From: Psammoneis japonica
Taxonomy: Eukaryota
Reading direction: 5' to 3'
Length of the DNA: 64,000 nt
NCBI GenBank assembly: GCA_008632985.1
Contig: QPGO01000017.1
Span: forward strand, 124,001 to 188,000
Shown in pieces: positions 1 to 63,543 of this stretch. Every line of letters begins with the position of its first letter. Within the stretch, counting starts at the first letter, position 1. The notes beneath the pieces are model-generated. The model saw only the letters and a program-made list of their open reading frames with translations, ran no database searches and was not told the origin of the DNA. The position numbers and the translations under genes were made by a program.

Positions 1-27
1 GAAAACATGCAAAATCAAAGCAAGCAG

Positions 28-397
28 AAGGCACAGTCAGAAAGATGTGCTGTTGGGCCAGCTGGTGGCTCGCAGAGTTCAACAGGGAAAATGTCCCACA
101 GCCACCAGAGAGTGCTGCGCAAACTGCACCAATGCCAGCATTGTTGTCTGCAATGTGTGCTGCAAGAAGCAAAACCATCAAAGACAAGGTTTTTGATCCT
201 CTGCCGGAAGCAAAATGTGCACGAACAAGTGTTGCCTCCCAACAATGGCAAGCAGCAGAAGCTCAAGTGCTGTCTCTGGATGGCAGTGCTTGTCTGATTG
301 GCAGAATTCAACACACAGCAAAACTCCCAACTTGTGCACTTGACTTGCAGCCGACAAACAGCAGTGAGCTCAGTGCAAGCAGCAGAATGACATCTGC
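28..397 (+). repeat. Diverged dispersed repeat, second copy at ~1836-2161
   Basis: Shared anchors aaggcacagtcagaaagatgtgctgttgg, gcagagttcaa, tggcagtgct, cacttgacttgcagcc occur in the same order in both copies. Confidence 0.8.
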
Positions 398-421
398 TTC
401 TTTGTGCTGGCAAAAAGGAAA

Positions 422-1083
422 ATGATGATGGAGGTGAAGAAAAATGGGATAAAGCAGAAAATGAGCCACCACAAAAATGGCACAAAAGTTGATGAAGGGT
501 TGGGAGGCCATTTCAGAAGGTGTGGTGAACTGCTTCTTTGAATTGGCATTGTCAAAATGGTGGTCTTGGACATCTTCGTTTGCTGCTGACATGCAACCAA
601 AGGAAGAGGCAGAAAGCAAGGGTTGTCAGAACAAAAAGCAAAGAGAAAGGGGATGCTGCAGCTGCAAAAGAGGCAGAAAGGTAAAATGCCGATGATGGAG
701 ATGAAGAAAAAAAGGGGACAACATGGAGAATGAGCCACTGTGAAAATGGCGCAAAAGGCAAGAGAGGGTTGGGAGGCCATTTCAAGAGGTGCAGCAAAGT
801 GCTGTTTTGATGGGGAGCCATGAACCCCGTTGGTGTTGTCAGAAGGCTGGTCTTGACACCATTGTTGTTTGCTGACAGCCATGTTCAATGATGGAGATGA
901 AGAAAAAAAGGGGACAACATGGAGAATGAACCACTGTGAAAATGGCGCAAAAGGCAAGGGAGGTCGGGAGGCCATTTCAAGAGGTGCAGCAAAGTGCTGT
1001 TTTGATGGGGAGCAGTGAACCCCATTGGTGTTGTCAGAAGGCTGGTCTTGACACCATTGTTGTTTGCTGACAGCCATGTTTAA
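422..1083. repeat. Tandem repeat, ~196-bp unit (near-identical copies 692-887 and 888-1083, diverged copy from ~422)
   Basis: Unit begins atgatggagatgaagaaaaaaaggggacaacatggagaatga. Copy differences include CpG decay (ggtcggg/ggttggg, ccccgtt/ccccatt). Confidence 0.9.
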
Positions 1084-3589
1084 TGTTTGATTGTGCTTTG
1101 CTCTTTTTCTGTCATGTGCGTGTGCTTCATGACAAACTGCATTCATGCCTGGACAAACCTGTGTGTTGTCAAAGTGTTGTCAAATCAGAAAGATGCTGGT
1201 TGAGAGTGGGGAGACTCATTGACATGCCAAGTGATGTGGTGTGTGAGGCAATGATGTGGGTGCCAGCACAGGAGTGATTGGTGGAGTTGCTTTGCAGAGA
1301 GAACATTCTTGCATCTGCAAGAGTGCTTTTTTGTGCAATTGTGAAATGGAACATCGTGCGGCTGCCATTGGTGTTGGTGCTTGTGGCAAATTGTTGCTTG
1401 GCAGTCTTGTCAGGAAGCAGCAGCAGCAGTGATGTGTTTGTGGAACAACCTCCATCATCAGCGGTTCAATCACGAGTCACCAGCCCTCTCTCAACCAGAC
1501 ACCCTGGGGCTTTTGTGCTCACCCGCCATCACCATGCACATTGTTGTGGATGTTTTCTTGCCTCTGACCTTCTCCCACCAAAGAGTCACATTCACTTTCC
1601 TCTCTGTGTGGAGTGTGCACGCACTTTGCTGTGCAACACTCCATGGCTGAAAAATGAAAAAAAATGAAAAAGAGGAGCAGGCAGTTGCAAAGCAAAATGA
1701 TGACAACACAGGCATCTCAAAACTCCTTGTTTCTGTGTGTCACTGGGATGGGCTTGTTTGAGATGGAATTTGTTTTGGAAAGTTTCTCCATTTCTCTCAG
1801 CAAGCACAGCAAAAATTTTGTGAAATCAAACTGAAAAGGCACAGTCAGAAAGATGTGCTGTTGGATGAGCTGGCAGAGTTCAATGAGGAAAACATCCTGC
1901 CAGAGAATGCTGTGCTGCTGACAATGATGTTGGTGTTGTCCACAGCATGTGCCACAAGCAGCAAAGCCGTTGAAAGACAAAACAGTGTGCTGTCTCCTCA
2001 AAATGGCATGCAAAAGTTCAAGTGTCTCTGCATGGCAGTGCTCATCTGAGTGGCAGCACTTCAACACACCACAAGACTTCCAACTTTCACACTTGACTTG
2101 CAGCCAGCCCACCAAACAGCAACAAGCTCAGCGCAAGCAGCATGACAGCAACAGCATCTGCTCCATTGGATTTGCTCCAGTTGCAAGTCAAAAAGTCAAA
2201 ACGCTGCTCTTGCTGGTGCCAAGGTCCCCTTCCCAAATTTTCTCTCTCATGCACCAGCTGTGCCAACTTGATGATGCCTCTTTCCTCCTGAAAAATGTGG
2301 TGATGGAAATGCAGGCAGTGAGCTTTTGTCACAACTGAAAACAGCAAAACCATTTTTGTTTTCTGAGTGTGGAAGAGGTCTCTCAATGTTGATGCCATGA
2401 TGTCCTCTTGCAGTTGTGCTGCCATGTCTCATGTGTGCCCACACTGCTTGCTCAGCACAGTGACTTTTGCACAACAAGCAGAATCTGGCTTGCTGAAATC
2501 ATCCTGCCACATCCAGACATTGTGCTTGCCGGACAATCCCAAACAAGAATTGTGGCAAAAAAGGCCACGCTTGCAGCTGACATGCATCAGGCTGCTCTGT
2601 GCTTGGCACAGTGACAAGCGTGAGTCTTGTGCGTGCACCTGCAATGTCATGCATCCACATCTCTTTTGCAGTCTTTTTGCAACTTTGTTTCTTCTTTCTT
2701 GAGGGCAAAACTGTCAGATGCTGCTTGTCAGCCAGTGCGTGCTGAATTCTTCAACACATCAATTGGCATTTTTGTGATTGCTTCCATTGCTGTCACATGG
2801 GGCTTTGGCTTTTTTGACTTCAAGGGTCAAACTCTGAGAACTTGCACTTCTCTTCCAGTCTTTTTTGTTGCAACTGTTCTTGCTTGTGACTCTTCTCAAA
2901 GATTCTGTTGGCTGCTGCTGCCCATCCACAGCACTCCTGGATCCATTCACAAAATTGCCCTGCCACCCCAAATCCACTAAACTGCAGGCTCCTTTGGGAG
3001 ACTGGTCAATTCTCTCATCTGAGATGCAAATGCAAGCCTTGGTGCATTTCTCTCCAGCAGAAGACTGCCTGTGTGTTTGACCCCTGGTGGGTTTGGATGT
3101 CTTTTTGGCACACAATGAGAAAGCATTGATGCCACAAAAAACAGAGGCAGTCCCAGCCCCTTCTGAAGACTCCTTCCCAGTTGAGATGTTTGCTTCCTTT
3201 GAAGGCAAATGGCAGCTTCAACACTGCCCATCACAACTCTTCTTGGAAACCCCCCGCCTGCTCTTCCTGACTTGCTTGGTGAATGCATGCAGGATCTCCC
3301 TCTGTTGGAATCTAATCTCTTCCTGGATCTGGAGTTTTGTGCATCCCTTCATGATCCAGTTGGCTGTCCAGTGTTCTCTTGCACTGCATCAGGGAGTGAT
3401 GGGTCAGTGTGCCTTCAGAGCGCAATTTTTGGGTGTGCTCTGATGTTCAAAGGAGTTCCCTTGGTTCATTGTGCTGGGCCTGTTTTTGGATGGTCCCCTT
3501 CATCATGTCATGCAGAAGCTCAGAGTGCTGTCCCTTTAACACTTTGTGTGTCAGGTCCTCAAATTCTGTTGGGAAACACACTGTGAAGA

Positions 3590-4900
3590 CATGGATGACT
3601 GGTGTGATGACCATGCTCTGGCAAACATTCTCAATTGCCCATCCATCTCACAATCATCCATCAACCATCAACCCTCTTGACCAAGCTCATCCAGAGAAAG
3701 ATTTTAATCTCTGGCATCATGGTGCCAATGTGCAGTTGTTCAATTGGGATGTCATCAATGAAGCCCATCAGACTTCCACCGACATTGCTCCATCAGTCAA
3801 CATGTCCTCTCTGGGCCAAGCACCTTTCACCCAGTGGGCCAAAGGCCATCAAGATCAACATGCTTCAGCATCAACTCTTCCTCTGAATGCTCAGATCAAT
3901 GAGCAAGCAGACAAATTGGCAGGTCAATGCCAAGGTCAACACACATCAGATGCAACTCAAGTGACACCCTTTCCCATTGTCAAGCACATCTCAGCCTTTC
4001 AGATGGAATGGTCGCCGCTGGATTAAAAGTGTCAGTGCATTGTGCAGCTGCAGCTCCTGCTCTTGTGGAATGCACCCATGAACAAAACAATTGGGGCGAA
4101 TCAGTTGTTGACAAGATTGGTTGGACCATGCACATTGCTCTTGTGTCTGCAGATTTTCTAAGAAGCAAGAGTCAACCATCAAGCTCATTGTTCATGATTT
4201 GCTGCCTGCAAATAAAATCATCAACTGATGCAACCCAGCAAGACCACATTTTTGCCTTGCATGTGAGCATCCCATGGAGGACAGGGGCCACATCCTTTGA
4301 TGTCCAGACAATCAAGCCTGGAGACAAACCTTTCTTCAAGGTCTTTGCAAGCACTGCAACAAGACAGACACTGTGCCTCCATTGTGAGATTTGCTTTTGT
4401 CAACTCTGGAGGCATGGCTTCAAGACAAGACAGCCTGCAAAACCAATGTGCTGTGCCCCTTGTTTCATCCACTGTGGAGGGCACAGTCCAATGTTGGATG
4501 GCAACAAGCATTTGATGGGCATTTTTCCACCTTGGGGAACACCTTTCAAGAGATGCACATGTGCAAGTCAGGCCTGTTGGAACAGTGTGTCATAAAAAAA
4601 AGACCCCCCCTCCTTTGTGGGCTGCCTGTTCACAGCTCATGACATGACACAGACTCTTGCAAATCTTCCCAATGCCAACAGGCCAAAGCTGAACTCACTG
4701 CTGCATGCAATGAATGCCATGAACACCTTGCCAAAAACAGAGACATTCTGATGAACACTGTGGAAGAACACATGAGCCAGGGCACCTCCACAATTCAAAA
4801 TTGGGTCACCATGGCAAAACCAAGGTTGAAAAAAAGCATCAAGGAAGTGAAGCACATTGCACTGCTTCATGACATCTGCTCTGGTGATGCCCATCCTGGC
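3590..4900 (+). mobile_element. Degenerate 3' part of a non-LTR retrotransposon (RNase H-like domain plus C-terminal CCHC finger)
   Basis: Translation gives WAKGHQD...LPLNAQINEQADKLA (RNase H C-terminal signature), then after frameshifts CLACEHPMEDRGHIL*C and QSNVGWQQAFDGHFS, typical of RNase-H-bearing LINE-like elements. Stops and frameshifts throughout. Confidence 0.7.
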
Positions 4901-6589
4901 TGGTCCTTGTCCTCTTCTGCCATGGTTGTCAATTGTGCTTGAAGTGCAGGCCAGCCCCCAGTGCCAGAGCTGCTGACAATGGAGTGAAAGCACTTAAAAT
5001 TTGGATCTGGTTTCTCTTTTTGGCAGCTGCAGCTTGCTCTCAATGGGTTTGCAGAACAAAACAAGAGTCTTGGATCAAGCATGAGCTGGCAGACCAAAAT
5101 TCTGCTCATGGACCACATGCCATTGCTGGTCATTCTGCACTCTGTACACTCAAGCAAATCAATCAAGAATTTTTGTCACCCAGAAGGACAGCTGGCATGT
5201 CTCTTTGCCATCTTCTGCACCAGCTGAAAGGAAAAGGCTTGAGCAATCCCACTGAGTTTGACAATGTGCACAACATGCTGGAGCTGGCAAGATTTTATTT
5301 GCATGACCAGCTTCCTCAAAAAGCACTCATCAAGCAACATTTTTAAAAGCAGTGCGGCCCTCCTCCTCTGCAGGATGGTGTGGAGAAAGATGCTGGCTCA
5401 CACAGCCACCACACACACTCTTCACAGCTTTGGTTGGTTTTCACAGCAAACTCTGTTGTGCCTTGTTGTCAAATAAAACAATGAAGACACCAAAGGTTTG
5501 CCACAGTTGAAAACTGTGAGATGAGAGAGTGCTTCTCTGTGTTGGTTCAGATGATGCAACAGAAAGAGGATGCAACAGACAGAGGTCTCAATGATGCAGC
5601 AATGTTGCCTCACAGTTGCACAACACAATGCCAAAAACTTGCACATTGTGAGAGAGCTGCTTTTTCATGACAACAGTTGTGGGACCATCTCTGAGTTGGC
5701 ACATTTCCAAACTTTTCTGTCCATGGACAAATGAGCTGGCTGACACAAGCTCACACGTTGGCACTCAGTGAGTGCTCAGCAACAAGCAGCTGTGGTGCAA
5801 GCAGCAAAATCTTTGCACACTTGGCATGAAACATCAGGGGGCAGTTGAGTGCACAACTCTTTCTTCCTTGTGACACAGGCTCAATTTTCACAGTTGCCAT
5901 GCAACCATGCAAGAGCAGACCTTTTCTCAGCACAATGAAGAGCAGCATGAGATGTGCCGGCACATGCAAAACATGATGCACATTGCTTGTGTGCCACACA
6001 CTCTTCACTGTAAAAACTTTGTGACACAAAACAGCTCACTGCTGGCTTCAGCCAATTGTTGCTCAGCAGCACAGCACATTGTGCTGCACATGTTTGTGGT
6101 CTGCAACATTTGCTCACATGTGGCACTCAACACAGGGAACAGGGAGAAAGCATCATGTGCACTGAATCACACACCAAGGGCAACTGAGTGCAAATGAACC
6201 CAGATCAACTGAAACCTGCTGCATGGCACACTCCAATCATGCCATTTTTCATTTCTTGCATGCTCCAAACAAGTTGATGTGCTTCCTGCCTCCTGCTGTC
6301 ACTCCAATGGGCAGAACAGGCAAAGTCATCTCTGGCACTCATTTCCTTCTTGTGGGCAACACTGGCACCTCTTCACATGCCTCAAAGAGGACCAATCAAA
6401 TCTTGCACTTAACTCCTTCAGCTGCCACAGCTTGTGTGCACCCAAAGCTTCCAAGTGGAGACTCTTCTTCAAGGTCACACATTGTCTCTCTGTTGCTTTC
6501 ATTGCAGTCATGGTGAAGATGCTTTTTCCTCCTGTTGGGATGGGGGAGCACAGAAGTTGCTGCCAAACAAGGATGATTTTGAGGGGCAC

Positions 6590-6740
6590 TCTTGTGTGAG
6601 ATCTTCTTCTGGATGGACTTGGCTCTGTGACATTTGGCCTGTTCTTGGACAGGCACTGTGGGTTTCAGGTTTGGCAACTGCACATCTCCACATTGCTCCT
6701 GACATGATTGAAACAACAGCATTGTTGCCACAAATGTGGT
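6590..6740. repeat. Diverged dispersed repeat, second copy at ~10810-10970
   Basis: Shared ttcttctggatggac, tcaggtttggc and ctcctgacatga(t/c)tga(a/g)acaaca in the same order. Confidence 0.7.
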
Positions 6741-9700
6741 GCAGCACCACAAGAACACACTGGCACAGCATTGCCTTTTTGTGTCAAGAAGAACATGCCA
6801 GAAAGCCAACAGAGAATCAGCCATTGAAGACATGACACTCTGACCATTTGATCCTGTGAAAGGAATGGCAGTCACTTGCATGCTGTGACAAGTCCAACCT
6901 GGATGAAGAATGCACAGAAGCAAGCTGGGCAGCAGTCAAGGTGTGAAGCATGAGAGCTTCATCACATGTTTGCAAAGGCCTTGGAATTTCATTTGCCCCA
7001 CTCTTTTTGCAAGGGCACATTTGAGCACAAAAAACAAGAAAGAAGCATGTTCATTTGTTGGAGCAACCACCAGTTGCTGCCATGATGTGTGGCTGCATTG
7101 TTGTTGGACACTTTGGTGCCCCCCCTTGCAAGACTTGTTGGCCCAAAGACATGACACTCATCACTGCAAGGAGCACAAAGTCGAATGAGTGTTCCTTGCA
7201 CCACATCTGGATTTTAACAAACCATTTAAAGTGCGCACCAATGCACCTGAGTTCTGAGTGCTGGCTCAGAGCAGAAACAATGAGAAAGCCCAAAAGTGCC
7301 CAATCAAATTGTGCACAAAATGCACCAAAGAGAATTGCTTGCCATTGTGGAAGCACCAAACAGCACGGGTCTGTCCTTCTTGGACAGTGCTTGTTTGCAT
7401 GTTCTGATCACAAAAACCCAGTGCACAGCACACTCAACACCAAACACACCACATGCCAGTGTTTGATTTGCAAAATAATTGGGCCTGGGCCACAATCTGT
7501 CAAAGGCCACCACCACCACTCTGGTTGCTCATGCACTGGGTCATTTCAACCTCAGCCCACCCCTGGAAAGAGAAAGAGATTTCTTGACAGTCATGCAAAT
7601 GCCAGAAGTTTGCCTTCTGCACAAGGCAAGCTTGACAGAAGCAAAGGAGGTGTGCCAACAATTCTCGCCAGCTTTGAGCCAATTCAACTTGAGCAGCAAA
7701 AAAGCACAAGCAGCTGTTGCAGACAGACGACACTTCAGAAGGGGATGTTCCATGTTCCATGTGGCAGGTTTGCTGCCAAGACAAAATTGTTGTCCCATTG
7801 GTGTCACTGCAAAAGCAGACAACTGGCTGGTGTCATGTGTTCAGTTGTGCCATCCTGGGGCAATGCACAGAGGCATTGGTTGCCCCATGTCTTTTCTGGC
7901 TCAGCATGATGTGTGAGAGCTGCAGAGTGCCCTCTGCATGCTCCAAAAATGCAAGGCATGTCAGAAGACAAGGCAAAACCTCAAACATGGGAAGCCACCA
8001 TGGAAAATGTGGCTGACAGTCTTGTGTGAGATCCCACACATGTGGACATGACAGGGGAGTGCACAGTCCAGCAAAAAGGAAAAAATGAATTTGTGCCCCC
8101 AGCTGCAATGATTGACCTGGTGACTGGGCAACTCAAAATTGCTGAAGTGTCAGCCAAAAGGGCAAGAATCTCACATCAGATGATGTCAAGCATTCCTGAC
8201 TGTGTGGATGTCCATGGCCAAGGAAGGTTGCCTTCTTTGACAGAGGAGCCCAGCTCATCTCTAATTTAGCTCATGGCCAATTTCAGTCAAAAAACAGAGC
8301 AACTGTGGCCTTCAAAACAAACCAACAAGCAAAGCAATCCACAGTTGTGCTCCACAGTGGAACATGCACAACAGCAGATGAGCAGGAATGTTGTGCAATC
8401 TTTTTGAGTCCAGGTCATGAAGTCAGATGACAACAACTCATGGAGTGGCATGCTTTCTGTGGCCACATCTTCTGAATGAGCAATGGCACACACCACCAGC
8501 TGGGCAAGCTCAAAGCAGCCAGTGTGTGGCAGAGACACCATGTGCCAAGTGAAAGTGTGCCCATGGACAAAAAAGGCAGCCATTCACTGATCATGAAGCC
8601 ACCAAGAAAGTCTTGGTCCTGGCTTTGGCTGATGCCATCATGCTTGCTGTTTGTCCCACACCAGCTTGGGCAACTGTCCAGTTGGCAGCTCCTGCATTGG
8701 CTGCTTGTGTTTTCAAAGACAAAATTGTTGTGCCTGCATTTGCAAGCATGCAGCAGGTGCAAACACAACAAGCCACAACCAGTTTTCCAGAAAGCAGACA
8801 GCTTGGCCTTTGGAGACACAAGAAGAGAAGATGTGCCTGGCCAGTTTAGCCCCAGCTGCAAACAGGGAGGCCACAGAGACAGAGAGAAACACAGCATGAG
8901 ATGAGCCAACTTGAAATTCAATCATCCCAATCAACTTGTCTGTCATTCTCAACTCAGATTGATTTGACACAACAGCCCTCACATCAACAACAGGAGCTGG
9001 CTGCTGACAAAGCCACCACAAAAATCTTGCTCCTGGCTTTGGCCAAGGCCATTGTGCCTGCCATTTGTCTTGCAGCTTGGATGTCCATCCAATTGGCAGC
9101 TTCCCCCTTGGCTGCTGCCCTTTTGCTTTTTGTTTGTTCCATTTAATGGAAACAGCCAATTTTGATTGTTTGCTTGAGAAAGAGAGAGAGAGCTTCAAGT
9201 GCGGAGCATGCTGACATGCCACAGGGGGCAGCTGCCCCTTGCCAAACAAGAGAAAATGAAAAAACACTGGGCTGATTGTCGTGCAAGCTTTGCCAAAGTT
9301 GTTGGCCCATTTCAGCAACAGCTGCACAATGTTCTGCCATTTCCTTTGCAACACAAGTCATGTCCAGTTCACACCGTTGGTTGGCGCTGCTTCTAGGCTG
9401 CAAAGCTGCAAAGTCAGAACATGTCATCCAAAATGGCCACATGCTGCCACAGTGACTTGTGCCATTCCATCCAAAGCTCTGGGTGCACAGCTCAGTGTCA
9501 AATTCCTTCCAAATGTGTCTGTGCCTGTGCAAACATTCGATGGCTCAAAAAAGCAGCCTTTGCGTGGTCGTCCAAAAACCATGTTGTAAAACTCACCAGT
9601 TGTTGAGATGTTCAAATGTCTGAATCATCATTCCTGTTGCTGCTGTCTTGGGAGCTTGGCAACTCATCATCATTGCTGTCATCTTTCAATGTGGTGCAAA

Positions 9701-10333: not shown

Positions 10334-10499
10334 GTGCAGCAGAATTGCTGGGTGATGAGTGTGCCAAGAAATGACTGCCAACTGAAAAAGAGGAAATTTT
10401 GCAAGAGTGCACAAACTCAGTGCAGCAGAATTGCTGGGTGATGAGTGTGCCAAGAATGACCGCCAACTGAAAAAGAGGCAATTTTGCGAGAGTGCACAA
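10334..10499. repeat. Tandem duplication, 86-bp unit x2
   Basis: gtgcagcagaattgctgggtgatgagtgtgccaagaa starts at 10334 and 10420. Copies differ at CpG sites (gactgcc/gaccgcc, ttgcaag/ttgcgag). Confidence 0.9.
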
Positions 10500-32179: not shown

Positions 32180-32189
32180 TCAACAACGG

Positions 32190-52200: not shown

Positions 52201-55200
52201 GCCATTGTTGACACCCTTCAGTGTGCAATGACAATGGCATCCTTGCACCCCTGCCTCATTGTCACAAGGCTTTGCCAGCAGCTTTCACCACCAGTTTCTG
52301 TGCTTTCAAAGGTTGGTGCTCTGGCGTGGCTGCCTGTCAGCAGCAGCAACTTTGCTCACTCACAAACACAAGAGCTTTGAGTGCATCACATCAGTCCAGA
52401 TCATGTGGTGCCTCTTTCCAAGGTTGCCAGCTGCCCCACCTTTGCCCCAAAAGTCCCCCATTTTGTGTCGCCGGTCATGCAGTCTGCGCCTCGCCTCAAC
52501 TGACCTGTCCAGCACGACAGGCCACTCTGAAAGTGTTCCAACAGGCTCGTGCAGCAGTGTTGACTCTGACCTTGTGCCTTCTGCTGCAAACAGTGATGTG
52601 TGCTCTCTGAAAATGTTTGCCATGCCTCCCACAGTGCTGATGTTCCCCACGTCTCTCGCAAGTTTTTTGTCAGGCCCAATGCCGTGCCTCCACGTGCAAT
52701 CACAAAACCCCCATTTTTTGCCAAAATTCATTTCCATCCAACCAATGACACACTGGTGTGAAGTTCCCAACAACTTGTGGGGTCACAAGCAGAGAGTTGC
52801 ATTGGTCACAGAGCTGTCACTGAAATTCGTCCATTGCACTTTCCCGCGCAACAAAGGAGGTGCTCCGCAAAAAGTTGGTTCCATCTTCCAACACCCAATG
52901 CCAGGAACAACACGTGCCCATTGCATTCTCACAAGACACTCGTTTAAAGCACAGGAGACTGACAATGCTCGTATCTTGGGCATTTCTGTCTCTAGTGGGG
53001 AGTCAAAGTCTGGCTGTTTTTAGTTTTTTGGTTCTAGTCGAATGGATCCACTTTCATTCCCGAGTCGTGACTCGTTCAATCGAATGAGTCAACGCACATT
53101 CTCGACTCGTGATTCGAAGTCACGAGGCGCTCGTGCCATTTTGACAGGCGTTGTGGATGACAGGGTCCTTGTGGCATCCTCTCTACTGGGTGATTGGCAA
53201 GGGCAATGATGCACACCACTGTGCTGCATTTGCCACACAACAGCTTGTAATCCTGAGATCATGGTGTGCTCATTGCAGCTTGACAGGCCACACTTTGTGT
53301 GAAGACAATGGCCATTTTTCATTCCGAGACGCACCCACCCCACAGTGCCCAACTTTGAATCTCAGCCTTCCCACAAGACAAAAAGCTGCATTCCCTCAAG
53401 TGCGCAACTGGTCTTGAGAGACTGGATGGCATCAGACCATGGCTCGAATCCCCCCGAGTTTGGCGGCGTGCCTCCACCATCATCGTTGCAAGAGCATCTC
53501 CAGCGCTGTTGCTCTGGTCTGTTGAAAGCAAAACAAATTCCAGTTCTGCAAAAGCACTCAAATTGCTCTTCACCTGCTGCTGCAATGGTGCCTTGAGCCA
53601 TGGATCCTTGACACAGTTGTTGCTGCTGGCATCAGCTTTGGGATGCTTGGGTTGTTCGTCGCATTCACAGCCAGTCACCCTCATCCTTTTCAGTCCTGCA
53701 GGGGCTTGGATGGTGAATGAGTGCTGACAACACTCCCCTCTGTCCCCTCCTTGCCTTCATCAACTGAGCACACTGGGCCTCAATTGCCAACAATGGGAGG
53801 TCTGTTTGTGCTTGCTGGGGCTGTCAAGTTTGATTGATGCAAAATGGTGTGGAAACTTCAGCAACCAAATCCACGCAGTCAGGTGCATCAAAACATTCGA
53901 CAAATGTGCTTCCTGTCATTGGCAGATCTTTTTCCAAGAAAACAATTGCTTCCTTGCTTGCAATGCAAACTGTCTGCTCATGCCTTCCAACCAGCATTGC
54001 ATCTGGAAGCAATTTGTTTGTTCTTGAATCTCAATCCACGAATTTTAAAGCATGTCTTTTTCTGAATTTTTCTTTCAATGGAACCCTCTCCAATTCAACA
54101 AAAACTCTTTGGCAAAGCACTGCAGTTGATCCATTAGAAAATGCTTGCTCTGTGCTCAAGAATCCTGGCACAGCAGTGTCCATGGCTTTTGTGATGATGG
54201 GCCAGAGCTGGTCTCTGGCAGACTGGTTCTCAATTGCCGGCACGGCACACCAATCTCTTTGGCCAATGCTTTCTCATGCCACCACCATTCATGTTTGTGT
54301 TTTCCAGTCTTTTGTTGCTGCTCTTGTGCTGCTGGCTTTAACTTGGCGGGTGCTGGAAATCTGGCTGGCGGTGGGTGTGCAAAGAATTGTCACGTGACAT
54401 GGCGTCATGACAAGCGAAACGGCATGTTTCAAAAAATCTTGCCAAAATGCTTGTCTCTGATTGGACAATTGCAACCATGTGATGCACAAAATCTGACAGA
54501 GTGATGGCTGCAAATGTCAAGAAAATGATGATGGTTCAGATGCCCACTGAAGCAACACAATTGTCACAATCGTTGGTGAGAGATTTGACCAACAATTTCC
54601 CCATGGCAAATGTGGCCATGTGGTGTCACCACGGTGATGGTCTGTGTGCTCATCCAGGTGGGTCACCAGCAGGGTCAGGGGATTCCAAAGCATGTCAAAA
54701 GATTTGAATGGACAAAGACAGACAGCAGACACATTTTTGAATGCATGCTTCACACACCTGGAGGTGGGCTGCATGTGCTGTGGCCAGCACGTGCGAGACA
54801 TTGAGGAGACTGTGCATTTCCCTCATGACACTTGCACAACTGCATTGACTGCACAACATCCATTTTCTCACAGTTGCTCCTTCAGTGCCATTGAATCAAC
54901 TGTCACCACCACCAAACAACCACCAGTCTGTGATCAAGAGAACACACACATCACAGACAAGTCCACCAAAACAAGATTCAAATCAACACCATGGCACATG
55001 ATGCGCACACCAAGAAAGAGATGATGAGGATGCTGTGCTGCCAATCCACACCCCACCAGGTGTGCACATGTCCTTGTGGCTGTCTGCACGCACTGCTCAA
55101 ATTGGCTCCCCTTTTCACACATTCATGAAAAATCTGAACATCCAGTGCAAATGCCAAATGCCACATGCCGCATGGCACATTGTGCATTTCTTTTTTAAAT

Positions 55201-55534
55201 TCAACAAAGGGCAACACAGTGTGCCGCTTGACCAACTGTTGACCCACTGCAATGCCGTCAACAACAACACAACAGCAAGGTCAAACATGATGGTGCTGGG
55301 CATTGTGCGGCAGTTCTCAGTTCCATTCAATTTGCTTTTCACTGCTGTGAATCATCATCTTTGACAGAGAGATGGCCATGGATCCAAATGAACTTTTGGT
55401 GCAGAGTCTGTTTTTGGAGAAAACACAGAAAACATTCATCATGCACTGCAAGCCAGCGCCAATCCGAATCACGCTGTGCCTGTTGACAGCATTGCGCACC
55501 CAATTCTTTTTGTTTTCATTCGTAACATGACAAT

Positions 55535-56240
55535 GTGCAATCACAGTGCACAATTGCAACTCTTGCTGGATGCAGGGTGCACTTGACTGATTGTTGTGGA
55601 CTTTCTGGTTGGACCCCATTGCAAGCTGTGTGCATTTGTGGGCGTGCATCCATGGCTCAAATCCTCATGTCACATGGTGCAGCAGTGGATGAAACAGAAC
55701 AACCAACCAACAATGGTCACACTTCTTTGCGTTTGGCCACTCTCTTTGGAAATGCTGATGTCTGCCAGTTTCTTCTGCAGAATGATGCTGATGCAGAGTC
55801 AAAGTCAACTGCTCATCTTGCTTCAGGTTGTGGAATGGAAGACACTGCGTGAGTTGTCTTGGAAGAAGGAGGAGCTTCAGTCGATGCAACATGCCACAGT
55901 GACACCACACCATCGCATCTCATTGCAAGTTGCAATCACACTGGGCAGCAAAAGTGTTGTGAGACTGCTGTTGGACCACGGAGCTGATCTGAATGCCAAC
56001 ATGAGTGGGGTCACACCATTGAACTTTTCAATCTCTTTGGGTCACCACAGTGCCACCTCTGCCTTGATGGGTGTGCATGTGCAGCAACTTTTGTTGCACG
56101 AAGACATTCTGCCAGTGCTCTGGTGGGCCCATGTGCTGGCCAAAGTGGGGAACAGGAGCACAGACATGTCCAGAGTGGGCCTTGTTTGCTCTTTGATTTG
56201 TGAGAATCCAGATCTGTTTCAGTTTTGCAGGAATGTCTGA
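55535..56240 (+). pseudogene. Ankyrin-repeat gene relic
   Basis: GWTPLQAVC...LMSHGAAVD, GHTSLRLATLFGNADVCQFLLQNDAD, VVRLLLDHGADLNA...GVTPLNFS. One frameshift near 55850. Confidence 0.8.
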
Positions 56241-59200
56241 AGGAAGCTGATCGCTTTGTTGCATTTGCTGCCAGTCTTGGCATTCTAAGAAAGCATGGGA
56301 GCAAACTTTCATCATCCAGTTCACTGGAAACTGCACATCTGCCATTGCCTCAGGCTGGGTTGTCAATGCTGCAGTCCAGCATCAGCATTCGTCATGCAGT
56401 GTGGCATCTGTTGGGTCACATTTTTCACCTCTGGCACCCCACCCAAAAAGAGCTCAGCACAGCACCTCTGTCATCAGTGCACAAAAACACCTCCTCAAGC
56501 TTTTTGACTCATTCCAAACCTCATCCTTGTTCATCAAGTTGGTCCCGTCTGTAGCTGACAACCAACAGCGGTGGCATTTTGAGTGTCTCTTGTGCTTGCT
56601 TTGTGAAAAATGCACCAAAACCTCTGTGTTTTTATGTCAGCAAAAGTTCATCTTGCATGGCTCTTTTGGTTGACCAATGCTTTGAAAGACTTGTTGGCAC
56701 AAAAGACTGGTGATGTGTGGGGAAGCATGTGTCAGTGAGACTTGGCAATGTGGGCAGCCATCATTGACACCATGACAGAAGCAATGAGTCACTTCACATG
56801 TGTGCATGTCCAACCTCGTCGTTGCCACAGTGAAGAGTGTGTCTGGATCTTTCAGAGGGCACTGTTTCCCAGTTTCCACTTGCTGCTCATGGACAGAAAT
56901 GATCAAGGTGCATCAAAAAGAAGTGCCACAGATCTCTCATCCACACACATTGCGCACAACAATCCATTTCAAGCAAGATGACACTCAGCTGTCAAGGATG
57001 GTTGATGCATCTTGAGCCTCCCATTGAATCAGAGAGAAGATCGGGGTCCAGTTTGGGCATGATGATGACTTGCTGCCATGCTGTCCTGGCCAGGTCTGCC
57101 ACCTGCAATGCATCAGCCAATTGCAGAATTGTGGAAGCTGCTGAGAACCTTCAAGCTCTGTTTTCAGCTGCCTGTGCTGGCAAAGATGTTTCCAAGATTG
57201 CAGCTGTGGAGCACTCTGTCTTGCCAAGACCTCACAAGTCAGGTGCACACTGATCTTGGGTCAGATGTCCCAAAGAAGTGCACTCCAACATCATGTGAGG
57301 TGATCAATCACAAGGATTGTGCTGAGTCAGACAAGACATTGCTCATGGAACACAAGCACCATCTCAGCGGCTCCAAGACACTGCTTGCCAAAGACATGGA
57401 CTGTGGCAAACTGGGGCCTGCTGTGTGCATCACATTTCTTCAGCTCTGGCTGGCACTGTCTCTGCATTGCTGAAAAGGATTGGCCCAGTCTCTTGACCAA
57501 GCTGCCTTGCAGAGCAACAACATTTCCAAAGCTGCTGGCAGCAACCACTGGGACAATGATCCCAGGTGCTGTCCCAAGCATGCAGAACATCAGAAGTGCA
57601 AGAAAAAAGTGCCAGCAGCATCAATGGAACAAGAAAGATGTCTGCTGTCAGTGCCTGCCTCTGACCCCAACCTGCCTGCTGCATCTGCTGTCACTGTTGA
57701 TGCCATGCCTGCTGAAAAAAGCCAAACTCAGGGAGCTTCTCTCACCAATGAGCCCATCGTTGCACCCATCTGGTGGGTCTCTCAAAGCCCATTGTAAACA
57801 AGCATGGTTCAACTGCCAACTTTCAAGGAAAGCGCGCTTCTTGCAAGCAAGCCGGTGTCAAACAGTTGCCCACAACTGTCACAAGGAGACAGAGCACATT
57901 CACAAGCTGCCCAGCCAAGGGCAGCCTGTGAGCAATCTGACCTCAGTCTGTGGCCTCAACTCTCATGTCCCACCTGGTGAGCCTCCCACCCAAATGACCC
58001 CTCTGATCTGTCTGTCACACCCACCAGAGACACTCCTCTTGCTGGTGCAGAGCCAGTGGTCTGGACTGGGTTTCACTGCTGTGCAGTCAAGTGTCTTTCT
58101 CCTGCTGCTGGTGCAAGCACTGCCTGTTTCTCCCAACCTGCCAAGAAACCACCCAAGCAGGTTGACTCCATCTCAGACTCTCCAGCTCCTGTTGCAGAGC
58201 ACTCATTTGACACCATGTCTGAGCCTGAACCTGCCCCCACCCTGTCAGCACCCCAAGTGTGCCATCTTTGGCTGTGGCACCTGTTGAACATTCCCCTTTC
58301 TGGGCTTCAGCCATGCAATGGAAGAGGCTTCTGTGGTTCATTGGCACAAGCAATGGCCCTCCTCCCCACCGCACCAGCCAACTCAAATGCATGCCTGCCC
58401 TCCACTGTTGTTTGTCCCCCTGCTGTTAGAGTGTCATTGCATGTGCTGTTGCTTTGCAGCAATTTGTTGGTGGCCATGCTCCTCCCTGTGCTGTTTGTCC
58501 TTGGGCTGCCTGTGCTCTCAGAGTTGCAAGCCTGTTGCCACTCTAGATGACTGAGTCAACCTGGTGCCTGGCGCACCAATCCAGAAGCACAATCTCAGGG
58601 CATGACAGCTCAAATGTGAGTTGGCATTTCACAATGGAGACAACTGTGATTCATCCATTTTGCCATTTAAACCCACCAATTTGAATGACACATGACAACA
58701 ACAACTTCTTTGATGCACACAGAGCTTCTTGTGGTTCAAGAGTGTGCTCCTTTGATTCAGAGCATTTTGCAAGACCAGCTGATCCAGTCTCTGGATGTCT
58801 TTGGTGGTGTTGCTGACTGATGTTGCACCCCCCATTTCATCCACTGAAGTGACCTCTTGTGCTCAGCCATCCTCTGCTGTGATTCATGTCATCTCCGGGC
58901 AGAGCCAGCTCATGTGCCTCATTTCCATCTTGGACCAAGTGACCTCCAGGTTGTCTTTGATGTTGGTGCTTTGTGCAAGACATTGCATTCAATGCACGCA
59001 AATGGATTCAAGAATGGTCCTGTCAAACTTTTTTGTGCCCTGCTTGCCCTTGGGGGGGGGGGGGCACGACAGATGTGGTGCAAAGATTGCCTGCAAGGGC
59101 ACTGTCATTTTTGGATCTTCCAAGAAGCTTTGCACCTGCCATGTCTCTTGAATCCAAGGTCTGCTTGCATTCTCCACAATCGTCCGCCAAAGGAAAATGG

Positions 59201-59635
59201 ATTCAAAGGCCATTTCTGGGGTGACAGTGAGATGCACAAGATTTGTTCTTTTGATGGTGCTCCCAAGCACTCGCACACTTGAGCATGACACGCACCTCCA
59301 CTTGCCAGTTGGCTGCCATGACTCGCTGGGCTCTCGGGCCCACTCATGCTCTCCAAGACAATCTGGGTGCAGCTTTGGCAACCCTGTCAATCTAACTCTG
59401 TCCTCTGCTCAGAAATTGCTTTGTGGATGATGGCATGCACACTTTGGGCATGCCACCTCCATTTTCCAAAGATCCCAGGCCATTTGTTCAAGGCTGCACC
59501 CAATCGCGACATTCCCAAATTGGACACCTGCAAGCATGCCAAGGGCTTTTCATCATTCTTTGTTAAGAAACATCTGGCCCTGGGTGCGATGGAGTGCTGA
59601 AGGCCGGCCACCCATCTCTGGCCCAGTCCATCCAA

Positions 59636-59720
59636 CAGCCAGCCAGCCAGCCAGTCTGTCTGTCTGCCTGTCTGTCTGTGTGTGTGTGTGTGTGTGTGTC
59701 TGTCCATCAGTCTGTCTGTC
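59636..59720. repeat. Compound microsatellite (CAGC)n-(GTCT)n-(TG)n
   Basis: Read directly from the sequence. Confidence 0.9.
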
Positions 59721-61499
59721 ATTCAGTCAATTGGCATTCATCACTTTGAATCATGCCTCAATGGCCACACCTGCAATTCATGGCAAACGTTCTTCCCAGC
59801 AGTGCAATGGCAGCTGCATCTTTGTTCACCGTGCATCTGGTCTCACATCCTCATTGAACACCAAGTCCGTTTCTGCTCTTCTGTCACCAAGCACATGAGG
59901 CCATGGCTGTGCCGGATCACGGCATGATTGTCCACTTGCCAACAGAAGCACTTTCAAAGCCAGCCAATTTGTTTCACATGCCAATGGCTCCTGACAATGC
60001 ACATGCTTCTGTGGCACAAATGCTCATCTTCAAAATGGAGTTGCAGCATGTTGACTTGGTTCTTGGCTCAGCGCTCTTGGTGCCGCTGGGCTTTGTTCCG
60101 CCAATGTCTGCACTGGCTGCACCATCCCACACCAGCACTTGCATGATCTGCACATGCAGGGTTGTTCTGTCCATGTTTTTGACCCCTGCTTGCAGGAAGG
60201 CAAGAAACTTCTGCACAATGGCAGCAATCTCTCATTGTGGTGATGGCGTGCCTTCTGGGGCTCCAGCAGCACCCACGCCAGTGGCAAGGTCTCTTTTGGC
60301 CCTGAATCAGATGAGCTCACCCAAGTCCTCCAACAAGTCAGCTCTGGCTGTGGACACTTGACCATCTGCAAATCAGCCATTGTCTGCTCCATCCACACCA
60401 CCATCAACAGCTGTTGATGTTCTTGATGCATCTTTCTGCCAACTCAACCACAACATCTGCTGTGCCATGCACCAAGCCGCTTGCTTCTTCTGTGCTCCAA
60501 GAACTTTTGCACAGTTGCAGCAAAGTCCCGGCAACAACAAATGGCTGCATTGTTTGCTTCATTGATGCCAACTTTGATGGTCTCTGTTGCAGCCAAAAAG
60601 ACTCTCAAAACCTGGCAAGCATCAAGTCTCACACCAGACATTTCATCTTGTGGTGCAAACAAGCCAGTGTCCTCTTCTGTGGGTTTCGGAGCTGCAGATC
60701 CAGGTTGCACTTTTTGCTGTGGAAGCCAAGCTTCTGCCACTGCTGGCAACAGCCAGTGCATGACTTGATGCTGTGACCAGCAAAATTTTAACGGCTTCAG
60801 CTTCATGCACCACTCAGGTGCAAGAGCTGCAAGACACAAAATGCCACCAAGTCCAAGGCATTTTTGCTGATGTAAAAGATGGAACAATCTTGTCTTCAAT
60901 TTTGCACAAGGACAGTCAAGTGTGCCTCAAGCTCTGAAAAATGCTGTCAAGGCTTTTGCCATGGTGCCAGCAAGCACACTGGCATTCCTTGTCACCACTG
61001 CTGGTTCCGCACAAAGGCAGAGGCTCCAGAGATTCTCATTGAGCTTGCAGGAACTGTTTCCAGCTCGCTGATCAATTTGCAAAGGGGCTTGCTTTCAAGC
61101 CTGATTCTGGTTGGTCAATCTTTTTGGTGGTGGGGTTGAGAGGGAGAGTTGACATCTGTTTTTCAGCCTTTTCACGCAAGCACAACAGGGCACATTTCAA
61201 ATTCAAAACTCCTCCAAATCCCCCCATCAAATCTCTGCCAATGGATTCTTGCAGTCACAATTTTCAGTCAACAACTCATGCAAAAACAAGCTTTGCTGGT
61301 TTGCAACCTTGAGCTTCTGCTCATTCAATGTCACAGGTTGCACATCAAGTTCATGATCTTCACAGATTATTTTTCAAAGAAAGGGGCCACCATTCTTGTT
61401 TGCCAGAGGGCAAAGAGTCAAACAAAGACACTGCTTCATTGTTGCTTGTGCACACATCAACAAAGTTGCAAGACAGCTCTGTTTTGTTGTCCTTCACAT

Positions 61500-62045
61500 T
61501 GTTTGCAGCAGGCTTCAAGGGCAGCAAGGCATCATCACCAACATTTCCCTTTGCCTGCATGTGTTGACAACACACCAGCACATTTCAATGAGCAAACTGA
61601 AACCTTGAAATGCAAGGCACAAAGTGTCAGTTGCATCATCTGCACTTGCCTTGTCATTCACATCATTGCTCCCATCCTTTCCATCCTCCATGCCATTTGC
61701 AACAGGCTTCAAGGGCAATGAGGCATCATCATCAACATGCCCCTTTAACTGCATGTGTGACAACAAACCAGCACCATTTTAGTGAGTGAACTGAAACCTT
61801 GAAATGCAAGGCATGAAGCATCAGTCACATCACCCACACTTGCCTCATCATTCATGTCATCATTCAAGTCTTTTTCCTCCTCCACATCATTTGCAGCAGG
61901 CTTCAAGGGCAACAAGGCATCATCATCCACATGCCCCTTTGCCTGCATGTGTGACAATGAACAGCCAGCACCATTTTAGCAAGTGAGCTGAACCTTGAAA
62001 TGCAAGGCATTGAGCATCAGTTGCATCATCTTTGCTTGCCCTGTT
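61500..62045. repeat. Tandem repeat, ~194-bp unit x3
   Basis: tttgca(g/a)caggcttcaagggca...accttgaaatgcaaggca at ~61502, 61696, 61890. Confidence 0.9.
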
Positions 62046-62207
62046 GCTCATGTCATCTTTCCCATTGTTGTTCCCCTCCTTCATGCCAGCCTTTGAGCTC
62101 CCCTTTGGCAGCTCCATTTTGTTGTTGCTTGTGCACAGATCAACAAAATTGAGAGACAGTTCTGTTTCGTCATCACTTGCACACACACCAGCAATTTTTT
62201 TGTCGTT

Positions 62208-63089
62208 GCTTGCACATGGATCAGCGCAACCACAAGGATTTTTTGGAACTTTGGGAACACATGCTGCAACATCATCATGCAAAGCCCGAGGAATCATGCG
62301 CTCTGGTGCAGGATGTTTTTGCAGGGCTGCATGATGAAGCTTCAATTCAATGGCACCAGCCAGTTGAGGTCTCATCCTCTTGGCTTCCCCTTTGCAACAT
62401 GGCAGTGTGTTTCTTCTGCCAATCATTGTCCTTGCCTTTGGGCAATGCTTCAATTGGAAATGGGTCAGAGAATGCTGTCAATTGCTTTCCACTGCAACTT
62501 GTTGCATTGCCATGTTCCGCTTTTCTGCAAAATGCTTGTGAGCTTGTTGCACATGTTCCTCATCATCCAGACGGCGCAAAACTTCTTGTTCATGTGTGTT
62601 GCCCTCTATTGGCACTGTCCTGTGTTCCTTGTCACTTGTGCATTGACCATCATCAGGCTGCTGCATTTCATTGAAGCTTGCGCACGGGCAGATCAACAAA
62701 ATTGCGAGGATTTTTTGGAACTTCGGCAGCACATGCTGCAACGTGCTGCAGCAGCGTCGTCACACAAAACCAAAGGAATCATGTGCTCTGTGCAGGATGT
62801 TTCTGCAGGGCTGTGCAATGAAGTTTCAATTCAATGGCCTGCCAAATGAGGTCATTCTCTTGGTTTTCTCTTTGCAACATGACAGCGTGTTTCTTCAGCC
62901 GTTCATTGTTCTTGCCTTCAGGCAATGCTTCAATTGGCAATGGGTGGGAGAGAATGCTGTCGATTGCTCTCCACTGCAACTTGTTGCATTGCCACATTCC
63001 ACTTTTCTGCAAAATCCTTGTGAGCTTGTTGCATGCATCCCTTGTTGCCCAGATGATGCAAAACCTCTTGTTCACGTGTGTCATTCTCC
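62208..63089. repeat. Tandem duplication, ~400-bp copies (62208-62607, 62676-63089)
   Basis: Shared ggattttttggaactt, tcaattcaatggc, ccactgcaacttgttgcattgcca and ttgtgagcttgttgca. Confidence 0.9.
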
Positions 63090-63543
63090 ACCGGCATGAC
63101 AAGCAGGAGATGGGATGAAGGTGCTGCAAGGAGCTGCACTTGCACTCGTGCATTGAGCAACACAGCAACAACAACAGCAAGCGTTGTTCGCGTTGGAGTT
63201 TCGAGTGTGAGTGATGGAAGATCAAGATGGAAGCGAGTTGTTTTGAATGAGACGTCGTTTCAAACGAACTTTACGACGTCATTGTGACGTTGACGAACCG
63301 GATCTTTTTTTCTTACCGCCCGGCCGGCTGAGAGCTCGCAGGCAACCAGTCACCCATTTCGCTCATCTCAAATCAATCTTCTTGGCCAGTGCCATTCCGC
63401 ACTCTGCCAATCAACCACATCAAGAATCACGAGCAGCAGCAGCGAACCGAAGTGTGTCTTTGAGATATAGCGTGCATCGTGTGATAGTCTGAGGTTTCAC
63501 CATATCTAAAGGAATCGAATCGTCCACTGAGAGTAGTTTCAGC

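Follow-up and report, generated by a model that had tools for sequence, protein, structure and literature searches.

Two nuclear domains of the diatom Psammoneis japonica with the signature of TpA-directed hypermutation alongside CpG decay

The window analysed here, a 64,000-nucleotide stretch of the Psammoneis japonica genome, holds a gene island of normal composition between gene-poor flanks in which the dinucleotide TA has nearly vanished, raising the question of which process removed it. Approximately 95% of TA steps are gone from about 40 kb of flanking DNA (94–96% saturation), as are most CG, with 132 TA present against approximately 1,670 expected at island density. The left flank (positions 1–10,930) has 29 TA (observed/expected ratio (o/e) 0.038) and 58 CG (o/e 0.095), with TG at 1.94 and CA at 1.82; the right flank (33,632–63,271) has 103 TA (0.053) and 428 CG (0.244), with TG at 1.77 and CA at 1.84. 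The island (11,113–33,473) carries 919 TA (0.606) and 1,318 CG (1.027), with TG at 1.11 and CA at 1.10, and composition is normal again at 63,272–64,000 (TA o/e 0.557, CG o/e 1.02). The loss of TA and CG with excess TG and CA over about 40 kb, reported in the initial annotation, is real and extreme (TA o/e 0.04–0.05, against 0.61 in the island). Both strands are affected, as seen from the flank excess of TG (1.77–1.94) together with CA (1.82–1.84).

From the island to the flanks, the dinucleotide fraction falls by 0.0378 for TA and by 0.0470 for CG and rises by 0.0898 for TG and CA together, so that the gain in TG and CA equals the loss of TA and CG, exact to 0.005, relative to the neighbouring island. 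AA (0.0800 to 0.0804, +0.0004), TT (0.0762 to 0.0814, +0.0052) and AT (−0.0043) are nearly constant, which upholds the earlier claim that A:T>G:C change is confined to TA, and G+C is unchanged between the compartments (0.479 versus 0.483). We consider it probable that the flanks are two chromatin-scale domains of the diatom nuclear genome in which DNA-level, TpA-directed transitions (TA to TG or CA) are near complete, with a slower decay of CG to TG or CA alongside.

Table 1 Coordinates of domains, borders, relics and repeats in the window
Feature	Positions	Strand	Evidence or content
Left hypermutated domain	1..10930		TA/CG depletion; continues beyond the window start
Left border strip, CG restored, TA still near-absent	10931..11112		6 CG per 100 bp from 10,901; TA back at 11,113 (9 per 100 bp)
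Normal gene island	11113..33473		RPS6e, zf-CW protein, protein kinases, 2.5-kb internal duplication
Right hypermutated domain	33474..63271		TA/CG depletion, counted over 33,632–63,271
Sub-blocks, TA gone and CG partly kept	33632..38000		Survival fractions
Small TA-bearing patch	35047..35400		12 TA in 35,001–35,500
PiggyBac-type transposase relic, 390-aa open frame	36400..37569	−	PF13843, E 3.9e-08
Longest open frame of the right domain, 485 aa, possible gene relic	42157..43611	+	Cys- and His-rich
Ankyrin-repeat gene relic	48695..49033	−	Ank_2, E 3.9e-17
Ankyrin-repeat gene relic, two overlapping frames	55526..56237	+	Ank_2, E 9.4e-13 and 4.1e-06
Tandem and dispersed repeat units	61502..63081		Copies differ CA versus TG at the same dinucleotide
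Normal composition	63272..64000		ORF with SAP domain (E 5.6e-11)

The domain borders are sharp to 100–200 bp: TA returns at 11,113, ends after 33,473 and is back near 63,270–63,400, showing that the hypermutation process ends within 100–200 bp of expressed genes. On the left border and again on the far-right one, CG recovers 100–200 bp before TA does. To the right of the island, out to approximately 38 kb, CG stands at 45–74% of island density where TA is already lost; survival of TA and CG is 0.094 and 0.735 at 33,632–35,050, and 0.033 and 0.453 at 35,400–38,000.

In a Pfam scan of 290 ORFs of at least 75 amino acids, run with curated cut-offs, four in-domain ORFs scored above cut-off, a fragment of a PiggyBac transposase and three with ankyrin repeats, the latter in two relic regions. 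The initial description of the flanks as transposon and gene relics holds for these fragments, and only these four in-domain ORFs carry it. No ORF of at least 75 amino acids in the left domain (1–10,930) has a Pfam family above cut-off, and none of the 290 ORFs gave a Pfam match to a reverse transcriptase, integrase or viral hallmark. The 485-residue frame has no homologue by word search, no Pfam family and no Atlas match. The island RPS6e shares 94% identity with its diatom counterparts (Helicotheca, Ditylum), in line with the diatom origin assumed in the initial annotation.

Three sequence comparisons, made on one transposase relic with five Tyr columns, one copy of a 120-bp repeat and two repeat arrays, show TA to be the ancestral state in the domains. 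For the PiggyBac relic, 955 homologues were found, 39 of which were used for the column comparison and 150 for Tyr content. Measured against the 39 homologues, conserved Tyr is kept in 0 of 5 columns, and the three strongest (86–97% Tyr) now hold His, with codons CAT, CAT and CAC. The relic has no Tyr in 390 residues, against a median of 2.6% in the 150 homologues, only one of which lies below 0.8%. Its other changes include Ile to Met (ATG), Leu to Pro (CCA) and Arg (CGY) to Cys (TGY), each twice, and its 64 mismatches comprise 10 that are a single TA>TG/CA step, 4 that are a single CG step and 18 that need more than one change.

The repeats give the same direction. The first approximately 120 bp of the TA-bearing patch is a copy of a repeat at 33,266–33,380 (minus strand); TTAT and GTAC of the outside copy correspond to TTGT and GTGC in the in-domain copy, which retains CTAG and CTAC. 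Repeat units at 61,502–62,061 show 10 columns mixed between CA and TG, with transitions making up 81 of 98 differences (17 transversions). The repeat pair at 62,235–63,081 shows 9 CA/TG mixes and 11 of CG with TG or CA, with transitions in 46 of 55 (9 transversions). The mixed columns show that the change arose in place, on either strand and independently from one repeat copy to the next. These polarity tests and the mass balance support the proposal, made in the initial annotation, of a second, TA-specific A:T>G:C process that is limited to the domains and lies atop CpG decay.

Survival of TA depends on its neighbours, being 0.009 in RTAY, 0.055 in RTAR/YTAY and 0.298 in YTAR (chi-square 142, p 1e-31). 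An additive one-strand model on the base 3′ of A gives k values of 2.33 (C), 2.27 (T), 0.82 (G) and 0.44 (A), with a likelihood ratio of 160.8 on 3 degrees of freedom. The process is thereby shown to favour R-T-A-Y, in which the mutated pair is an A with a 3′ pyrimidine or, equivalently, a T with a 5′ purine. GTAA sites give GCAA rather than GTGA (gain of 60.2 versus 9.8 per 10,000), a split not fully separable from CpG decay acting in these same contexts. In young blocks TA loss proceeds, as a relative rate, at 3.5–8 times CpG decay, and blocks with CG survival of 0.45–0.74 are already at TA survival of 0.03–0.09, showing that the TA process reaches saturation ahead of CpG decay. Rates and directions are read here from the end state rather than from observed mutation events, and for most rates the flanks are taken to have started with island composition. 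The context preference and the speed relative to CpG decay are additions to what the initial annotation described.

A modified base at TA, with 5mC at CG, might be miscalled by a long-read base-caller; both dinucleotides are palindromic, and a strand-wise miscall would give TG or CA and never the double change. This explanation can be set against a public run (X1; 657,387 Logan contigs; single-copy word depth 58–67, approximately 60-fold), whose platform is not on record, whose accuracy is judged by its word depth and the length of its contigs, and which comes from the same sample as the other listed runs and may be the assembly's own data, a point in favour of the artefact. X1 depth is present in 30 of 30 bins over 30,000–49,999 and is equal in island and domain, the domain lying mostly at single-copy depth. 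An X1 match over 36,202–38,251 spans 2,050 bp with a single difference, and two further matches span 1,805 bp with 4 differences and 2,049 bp with 3. Contigs of up to 2 kb at approximately 60-fold word depth thus match the TA-free sequence with 1–4 differences per 2 kb, and 31-mer contigs of this kind are out of reach for noisy long reads. A pure miscall of intact DNA is also unlikely because repeat copies mix CA and TG at one site and the relic shows lost frames and other changes. With X1 contigs carrying the TA-free sequence near letter for letter, the artefact that the initial annotation had named as a possible refutation is ruled out as it was framed there; a base-calling artefact is already largely refuted, and we give it almost no weight. 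Scarcely credible, too, is a native composition, in which the flanks would be foreign or repeat DNA devoid of TA or CG from the outset, or would carry an ADAR-like RNA edit reverse-transcribed back. Most of the 40 kb lacks a recognisable family, as such an origin would allow, but conserved Tyr has become His with CAY codons while relatives elsewhere have normal Tyr content, the repeat reads TA in its outside copy but TG within the domain, and the mass balance is struck with the adjoining island. As for the RNA edit, no reverse transcriptase was found by Pfam among the ORFs scanned, both strands are affected, and relics of a DNA transposon and of ankyrin genes are affected within one contiguous block.

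Fungal RIP resembles the diatom pattern in being regional, transition-only and dinucleotide-specific, in wrecking transposons and in leaving sharp compositional blocks in ascomycetes. It was rejected: RIP changes C to T at CpA, creates TpA and lowers G+C, whereas in the diatom domains TpA is destroyed (0.04–0.05 of expectation) and G+C is constant (0.483 versus 0.479). RIP is also triggered by duplication, whereas the 2.5-kb island duplicates at 21,908–24,379 and 25,982–28,442 (87.8% identical) are untouched, retaining 99 and 95 TA and 126 and 136 CG. The diatom process appears not to be triggered by duplication, given these intact duplicates and a mostly single-copy domain; older, diverged duplications may exist.

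Decay of CG to TG or CA is the known fate of 5-methylcytosine, and the domains carry what reads as its signature (CG>TG/CA change and CG depletion). Sites of both kinds are still polymorphic: the 40 best-supported differences between the window and X1 comprise 8 of TA with TG/CA, 13 of CG with TG/CA and 19 at neither. CpG decay accounts for the CG>TG/CA half of the pattern (block CG survival 0.09–0.74; the 13 polymorphic differences), but it is unable to remove TA, is slower here and has borders slightly inside the TA-free zone. Ordinary divergence is also large, because 18 of the 64 relic mismatches are multi-step and 19 of the 40 X1 differences lie outside TA and CG.

The initial annotation knew of no published system with this signature; a 2026 preprint on Bigelowiella natans, however, used mutation-accumulation lines to measure exactly this TpA>TpG/CpA hypermutation (Mettrop et al., bioRxiv 10.64898/2026.01.13.699255). 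Of the 231 mutations recorded in two viral inserts, 230 were A>G or T>C, all at TpA according to the text, with a de novo rate approximately 1000 times background that was on in some lines only. The targets described are integrated NCLDV and virophage DNA (Rho 0.45 in the NCLDV region), and DDE transposase and reverse-transcriptase domains are over-represented in TpA-poor, CpA+TpG-rich clusters; genome defence by an ADAT2-like DNA adenine deaminase is proposed (10.64898/2026.01.13.699255). As an end state, the diatom domains show the same A:T>G:C change at TpA only, on either strand and in discrete regions beside normally mutating DNA. This signature, which alone makes the link, suggests a process of the same kind in the two organisms. 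They differ in lineage, B. natans being a chlorarachniophyte (rhizarian) and P. japonica a diatom (stramenopile), and in degree, with a Rho of 0.45 for NCLDV DNA against a TA o/e of 0.04–0.05 over 40 kb. The B. natans targets described are viral, whereas the Pfam scan here returned no viral gene, and the rate is directly measured there and inferred in the diatom. CpG decay accompanies TA loss in the diatom, whereas CpG has no occurrence in the B. natans text; the R-T-A-Y preference is measured in the diatom, whereas 'trinucleotide' and 'flanking' are absent from the preprint's main text, a legend of which mentions a mutation motif.

A mechanism for the TpA-directed change can be proposed in which a silent or methylated chromatin state, and not sequence duplication, would provide the targeting. 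Most probably, inosine would be made at 5′-T-A-Y-3′ on either strand by a TadA/ADAT2-type DNA adenine deaminase and would then be fixed as G, so that A:T becomes G:C at one or the other position of TA. The loss of Tyr codons, together with changes at Ile, Leu and many cross-codon positions, would disable transposons along with other silent DNA. The TadA/ADAT2 target A34 follows U33, and C comes next in bacterial tRNA-Arg. TadA, ADAT2/3 and TadA-derived base editors convert A to I, read as G, in a tRNA context that resembles T-A-Y; this is a resemblance only, and the natural substrate of TadA and ADAT2/3 is RNA. Adenine deamination and thymine modification predict the same sequence outcome, and thymine chemistry is an unlikely alternative that still deserves some weight: a TET/JBP-type dioxygenase would oxidise T at R-T-A to 5-hydroxymethyl- or 5-formyluracil, and mispairing with G or error-prone repair would give T>C. 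Oxidised thymines cause A:T>G:C changes, R-T-A-Y is equally readable as T with a 5′ purine, and the CA/TG mixes show change at each of the two TA positions. Against this, the B. natans authors prefer adenine deamination, likewise as a proposal. Error-prone repair in heterochromatin by a polymerase-eta-like enzyme (WA>WG), raised in the initial annotation, includes A>G at TA within its WA motif, but AA and TT are undepleted, leaving the A-A half of WA untouched, and saturation of 94–96% at one dinucleotide far exceeds a repair by-product. The constancy of AA, TT and AT, with change limited to TA, weakens this candidate and makes it very improbable.

The domains are the first sign of TpA hypermutation from a diatom; it is at saturation here and falls on non-viral DNA. 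Tentatively, and with more doubt than confidence, we suggest that TpA hypermutation could be an old, chromatin-guided genome defence common to the SAR supergroup (diatoms, chlorarachniophytes), in which a dedicated nuclear enzyme would read R-T-A-Y in double-stranded silent DNA and outpace 5mC decay. Were this so, the sharp outer edge of heterochromatin would be written into sequence, and the enzyme would amount to a naturally occurring DNA editor, specific to TA, that turns A into G.

In animals, ADAR hyperediting and APOBEC3 likewise hypermutate selfish or viral sequences by deamination, with ADAR showing a preference for a 5′ U (cited in 10.64898/2026.01.13.699255). These enzymes act on RNA or on single-stranded retroelement cDNA and mark one strand, whereas in the diatom a contiguous genomic block that includes a DNA transposon is affected on both strands.

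The window comprises three compositional compartments, with a gene island of normal composition lying between two TA-poor flanks, and its final 729 bases return to normal composition. Together the flanks hold 132 TA dinucleotides, against approximately 1,670 predicted from the island density, at equal G+C content (0.479 in the island and 0.483 in the flanks). The loss of TA and CG with an excess of TG and CA, as described for the flanks in the initial annotation, is borne out by the dinucleotide counts far beyond chance. Expressed as fractions of all dinucleotides, TA is lower by 0.0378 and CG by 0.0470 in the flanks than in the island, and TG and CA together are higher by 0.0898. The window shows real, DNA-level hypermutation of TpA to TpG/CpA that is confined to domains, prefers R-T-A-Y sites (R, purine; Y, pyrimidine) and is superimposed on CpG decay.

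Compartments of the window and protein-coding fragments recognized in the flanks, with dinucleotide counts and observed/expected ratios (o/e).
Feature	Position	Strand	TA (o/e)	CG (o/e)	TG o/e	CA o/e	Pfam
Left flank	1–10,930		29 (0.038)	58 (0.095)	1.94	1.82	
Island	11,113–33,473		919 (0.606)	1318 (1.027)	1.11	1.10	
Right flank	33,632–63,271		103 (0.053)	428 (0.244)	1.77	1.84	
PiggyBac transposase fragment	36,400–37,569	-					Above cut-off
Ankyrin fragment	48,695–49,033	-					Above cut-off
Ankyrin fragments	55,526–56,237	+					Above cut-off

Three independent tests, based on a transposase relic, on repeat copies inside and outside the domain, and on repeat units, show that TA was the ancestral state. 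The PiggyBac relic has 955 homologues (E ≤ 0.001), and the 39 of at least 400 residues among the best 50 were aligned with it, giving 172 conserved columns and 64 mismatches. The relic has lost tyrosine at all five conserved tyrosine columns, and the three that are 86–97% tyrosine are now histidine (codons CAT, CAT and CAC). Other changes include Ile to Met (ATG) and Leu to Pro (CCA), each twice, and Arg to Cys (TGC and TGT). A single TA to TG/CA step accounts for 10 of the 64 mismatches and a single CG to TG/CA step for four; 46 are reachable by any single change, and 18 require more. The 390-residue frame of the relic contains no tyrosine. Among 150 homologues the median tyrosine content is 2.6%, with only one below 0.8%, and intact members of the family are therefore not TA-free, contrary to one possibility considered in the initial annotation.

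The outside copy of a 120-bp repeat (33,266–33,380, minus strand) reads TTAT and GTAC where the inside copy (from 35,047) reads TTGT and GTGC; the inside copy retains CTAG and CTAC. Among the repeat units at 61,502–62,061, transitions make up 81 of 98 pairwise differences and ten dinucleotide columns alternate between CA and TG; the repeat pair at 62,235–63,081 shows 46 transitions among 55 differences and nine such columns. A change from CA to TG between copies takes two steps. These mixtures are most simply explained if the same ancestral TA or CG was converted separately in each copy, in place and on either strand, after duplication. A 188-bp tandem repeat in the hypermutated domain (39,983–40,706, 3.8 copies, 79% matches) differs from the repeats at 61.5–63.1 kb in that transversions account for 91 of 160 pairwise differences between its units.

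The window was compared with contigs of two sequencing runs, X1 and X2, of the one public sample that contains this sequence. X1 comprises 657,387 Logan contigs (140.7 Mb) with a single-copy word depth of 58–67; its sequencing platform is unrecorded, and it may be the assembly's own sample. Depth in X1 is present in all 30 bins of positions 30,000–49,999 and is equal in the island and the domain, most of which lies at single-copy depth. Contigs of X1 match the TA-free DNA over 2,050 bp (36,202–38,251, one difference), 1,805 bp (four differences) and 2,049 bp (three differences). Contigs built from 31-mers are unobtainable from noisy long reads, which makes miscalling of a modified base, a concern raised at the outset, very unlikely. 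The window and X1 differ at 236 positions. Among the 40 best-supported differences, four are TA in the window and TG/CA in the reads, four show the opposite, 13 are CG against TG/CA and 19 are other changes. TA and CG sites are thus both variable, whether within the sample itself or between it and the assembly.

Summed X1 word depth reaches 3,467–5,508 at 35,336–36,669, against approximately 60 for single-copy DNA, and is 1,071 at 32,668–33,334, 993 at 38,004–38,670 and 591 at 46,008–46,674; these stretches are repeated elements. For an open reading frame (ORF) in the part of highest depth (36,054–36,392, minus strand), the protein collection contains no homologue. X2 has depth in 7 of 30 bins and lacks cover over most of 33,335–49,999, which is no evidence of silence. 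One X2 contig joins 32,254 to 32,385, and the 130 skipped bases (32,255–32,384) start with GTGAGT and end with CAG on the minus strand. This is a canonical intron, and its removal indicates cDNA-like behaviour of X2, whose library type is unrecorded.

The surviving TA sites are distributed non-randomly across context classes (chi-square 142, p = 1e-31). Flank density relative to island density is 0.009 for R-T-A-Y (five sites), 0.055 for R-T-A-R and Y-T-A-Y, and 0.298 for Y-T-A-R; no ATAT survives against approximately 134 expected from the island, and 31 TTAA survive against approximately 76. A model in which the A on each strand changes at a rate depending solely on its 3′ neighbour accounts for all 16 contexts (k = 2.33 for C, 2.27 for T, 0.82 for G and 0.44 for A) and improves on a uniform rate with a likelihood ratio of 160.8 (3 degrees of freedom). 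The products of GTAA-type sites agree with this model, the gain being 60.2 per 10,000 for GCAA and 9.8 for GTGA, although CpG decay in the same context can be only partly subtracted.

DNA adenine deamination would provide a chemistry for the loss of TA and is our leading guess; thymine oxidation is its main rival. An A with a pyrimidine 3′ of it is, on the opposite strand, a T with a purine 5′ of it, so that the R-T-A-Y rule fits adenine and thymine chemistry equally. Error-prone synthesis of the polymerase-eta type, which acts at WA and was also among the mechanisms first suggested, is disfavoured, since AA, TT and AT shift by no more than 0.005 between the island and the flanks and the A:T to G:C change is therefore limited to TA. 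Long tracts converted on one strand were not detected in the flanks by a runs test of TG versus CA (z = −0.5 in the right flank, −3.3 in the left flank and −0.7 in the island), and overdispersion of TG and CA is no higher there than in the island.

The relative pace of the two losses can be read from blocks that retain CG. At 33,632–35,050 and 35,400–38,000, CG stands at 45–74% of island density and TA at only 3–9%; at 52,401–53,500 the values are 59% and 17%. Provided that decay also accounts for the missing CG of these blocks, TA is lost approximately 3.5 to 8 times faster than CG. Alternatively, CG is unmethylated in these blocks and the TA process is independent of CG methylation. In older blocks TA levels off at 3–16%, chiefly at Y-T-A-R sites. 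CG recovers 100–200 bp ahead of TA at the left and far-right borders.

Among classical systems fungal RIP comes closest, but it runs in the opposite direction and is triggered by duplication. The island contains a 2.5-kb segmental duplication (21,908–24,379 and 25,982–28,442; 87.8% identity over 2,386 aligned bases) with paralogous ORFs rich in Glu, Lys and Ala (23,816–24,751 and 27,870–28,976, both on the minus strand) that belong to no Pfam family. As an unmutated control, its copies hold 95 and 99 TA and 136 and 126 CG, and plain duplication is therefore not the trigger. The hypermutated domain ends sharply a few hundred bases upstream of the gene for ribosomal protein S6e. From this stop, and from the overlap with CpG-depleted DNA, we infer that the process is aimed by a domain of chromatin or methylation. 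No tRNA genes were found as border elements.

To our knowledge, no targeted erasure of TpA by a cellular process was known before a 2026 preprint. It describes mutation-accumulation lines of Bigelowiella natans, a chlorarachniophyte. According to its text, two viral regions integrated in that genome mutate at approximately 1000 times the rate of the remaining DNA, and of 231 changes in these regions 230 are A to G or T to C, all on TpA; 124 clusters of the genome are poor in TpA and rich in CpA and TpG. Its authors propose a DNA adenine deaminase resembling ADAT2 (10.64898/2026.01.13.699255). The signature had been put forward for the window as undescribed, a status that this precedent removes; the process seen here most likely corresponds, in a diatom, to that of B. 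natans. The two cases differ in lineage and in degree: the window is near saturation, whereas the NCLDV region of B. natans has a Rho of 0.45 and its viral inserts are half depleted (10.64898/2026.01.13.699255). Moreover, unlike those inserts, the window contains no viral genes, CpG decay accompanies its TA loss, and its flanking-base preference was measured. The words 'CpG', 'diatom', 'trinucleotide' and 'flanking' do not occur in the main text of the preprint, whose supplements may hold context data (10.64898/2026.01.13.699255). The available text of a Phaeodactylum mutation-accumulation paper (PMC6604790) makes no mention of TpA. No report of a TA-erasing signature in a diatom was found in the literature.

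The window represents an end state in a diatom, with approximately 95% of TA lost over tens of kilobases and sharp borders beside a ribosomal protein gene. Diatoms are major primary producers of the ocean, and a mechanism common to the window and B. natans would probably be widely distributed among SAR protists. Any candidate enzyme must account for the extended R-T-A-Y preference. Erasure of TA would bias the annotation of transposons: having lost Tyr, TAA and TAG, relics resemble long open frames rich in Cys and His. The plus strand of the flanks (40.6 kb) holds 68 TAA, 39 TAG and 966 TGA, and that of the island (22.4 kb) 438 TGA. With TAA and TAG nearly absent, the domains are rich in long frames closed only by TGA, in which gene finders may predict spurious Cys- and His-rich proteins. 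Methylation proxies based on dinucleotides would be distorted, because the TG/CA excess is only partly derived from CpG. The o/e ratios of TA and of TG/CA together would offer a simple genome-wide marker for long-term silent chromatin that needs no epigenomic data.

Island genes encode S6e, a zf-CW protein and protein kinases (Pfam). S6e shares 94% identity with proteins of the diatoms Helicotheca tamesis and Ditylum brightwellii; the 120 matches listed all reach at least 84%, and the named ones are from diatoms or stramenopiles. The window is therefore diatom nuclear DNA. Recognizable genes are sparse in the flanks: among 290 ORFs of at least 75 residues (36, 150 and 104, a few of them beyond 63,272), only the PiggyBac and ankyrin fragments exceed Pfam cut-offs within the domains, and none was recognized as a reverse transcriptase, an integrase or a giant-virus hallmark. 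Viral origin of the domains was dropped, as these ORFs contain no hallmark gene. Weak matches to TgpA_N, TraM, the IFT121 zinc finger, FA_hydroxylase, P5-ATPase and Flavi_NS5 (E = 0.003–0.008) fall below curated cut-offs and were taken as chance. None of the 127 pattern matches to the transposase relic in a metagenome scan was confirmed. A 485-residue ORF at 42,157–43,611 has no homologue by word search and no Atlas match. This frame carries a long acidic run and coincides with a stretch of strong purine skew (42,000–46,000; GC skew +0.19 to +0.21, AT skew +0.17 to +0.22) resembling that of the Glu- and Lys-rich genes at 14–18 kb, which suggests that the stretch is the relic of a host-type gene rather than of a transposon.
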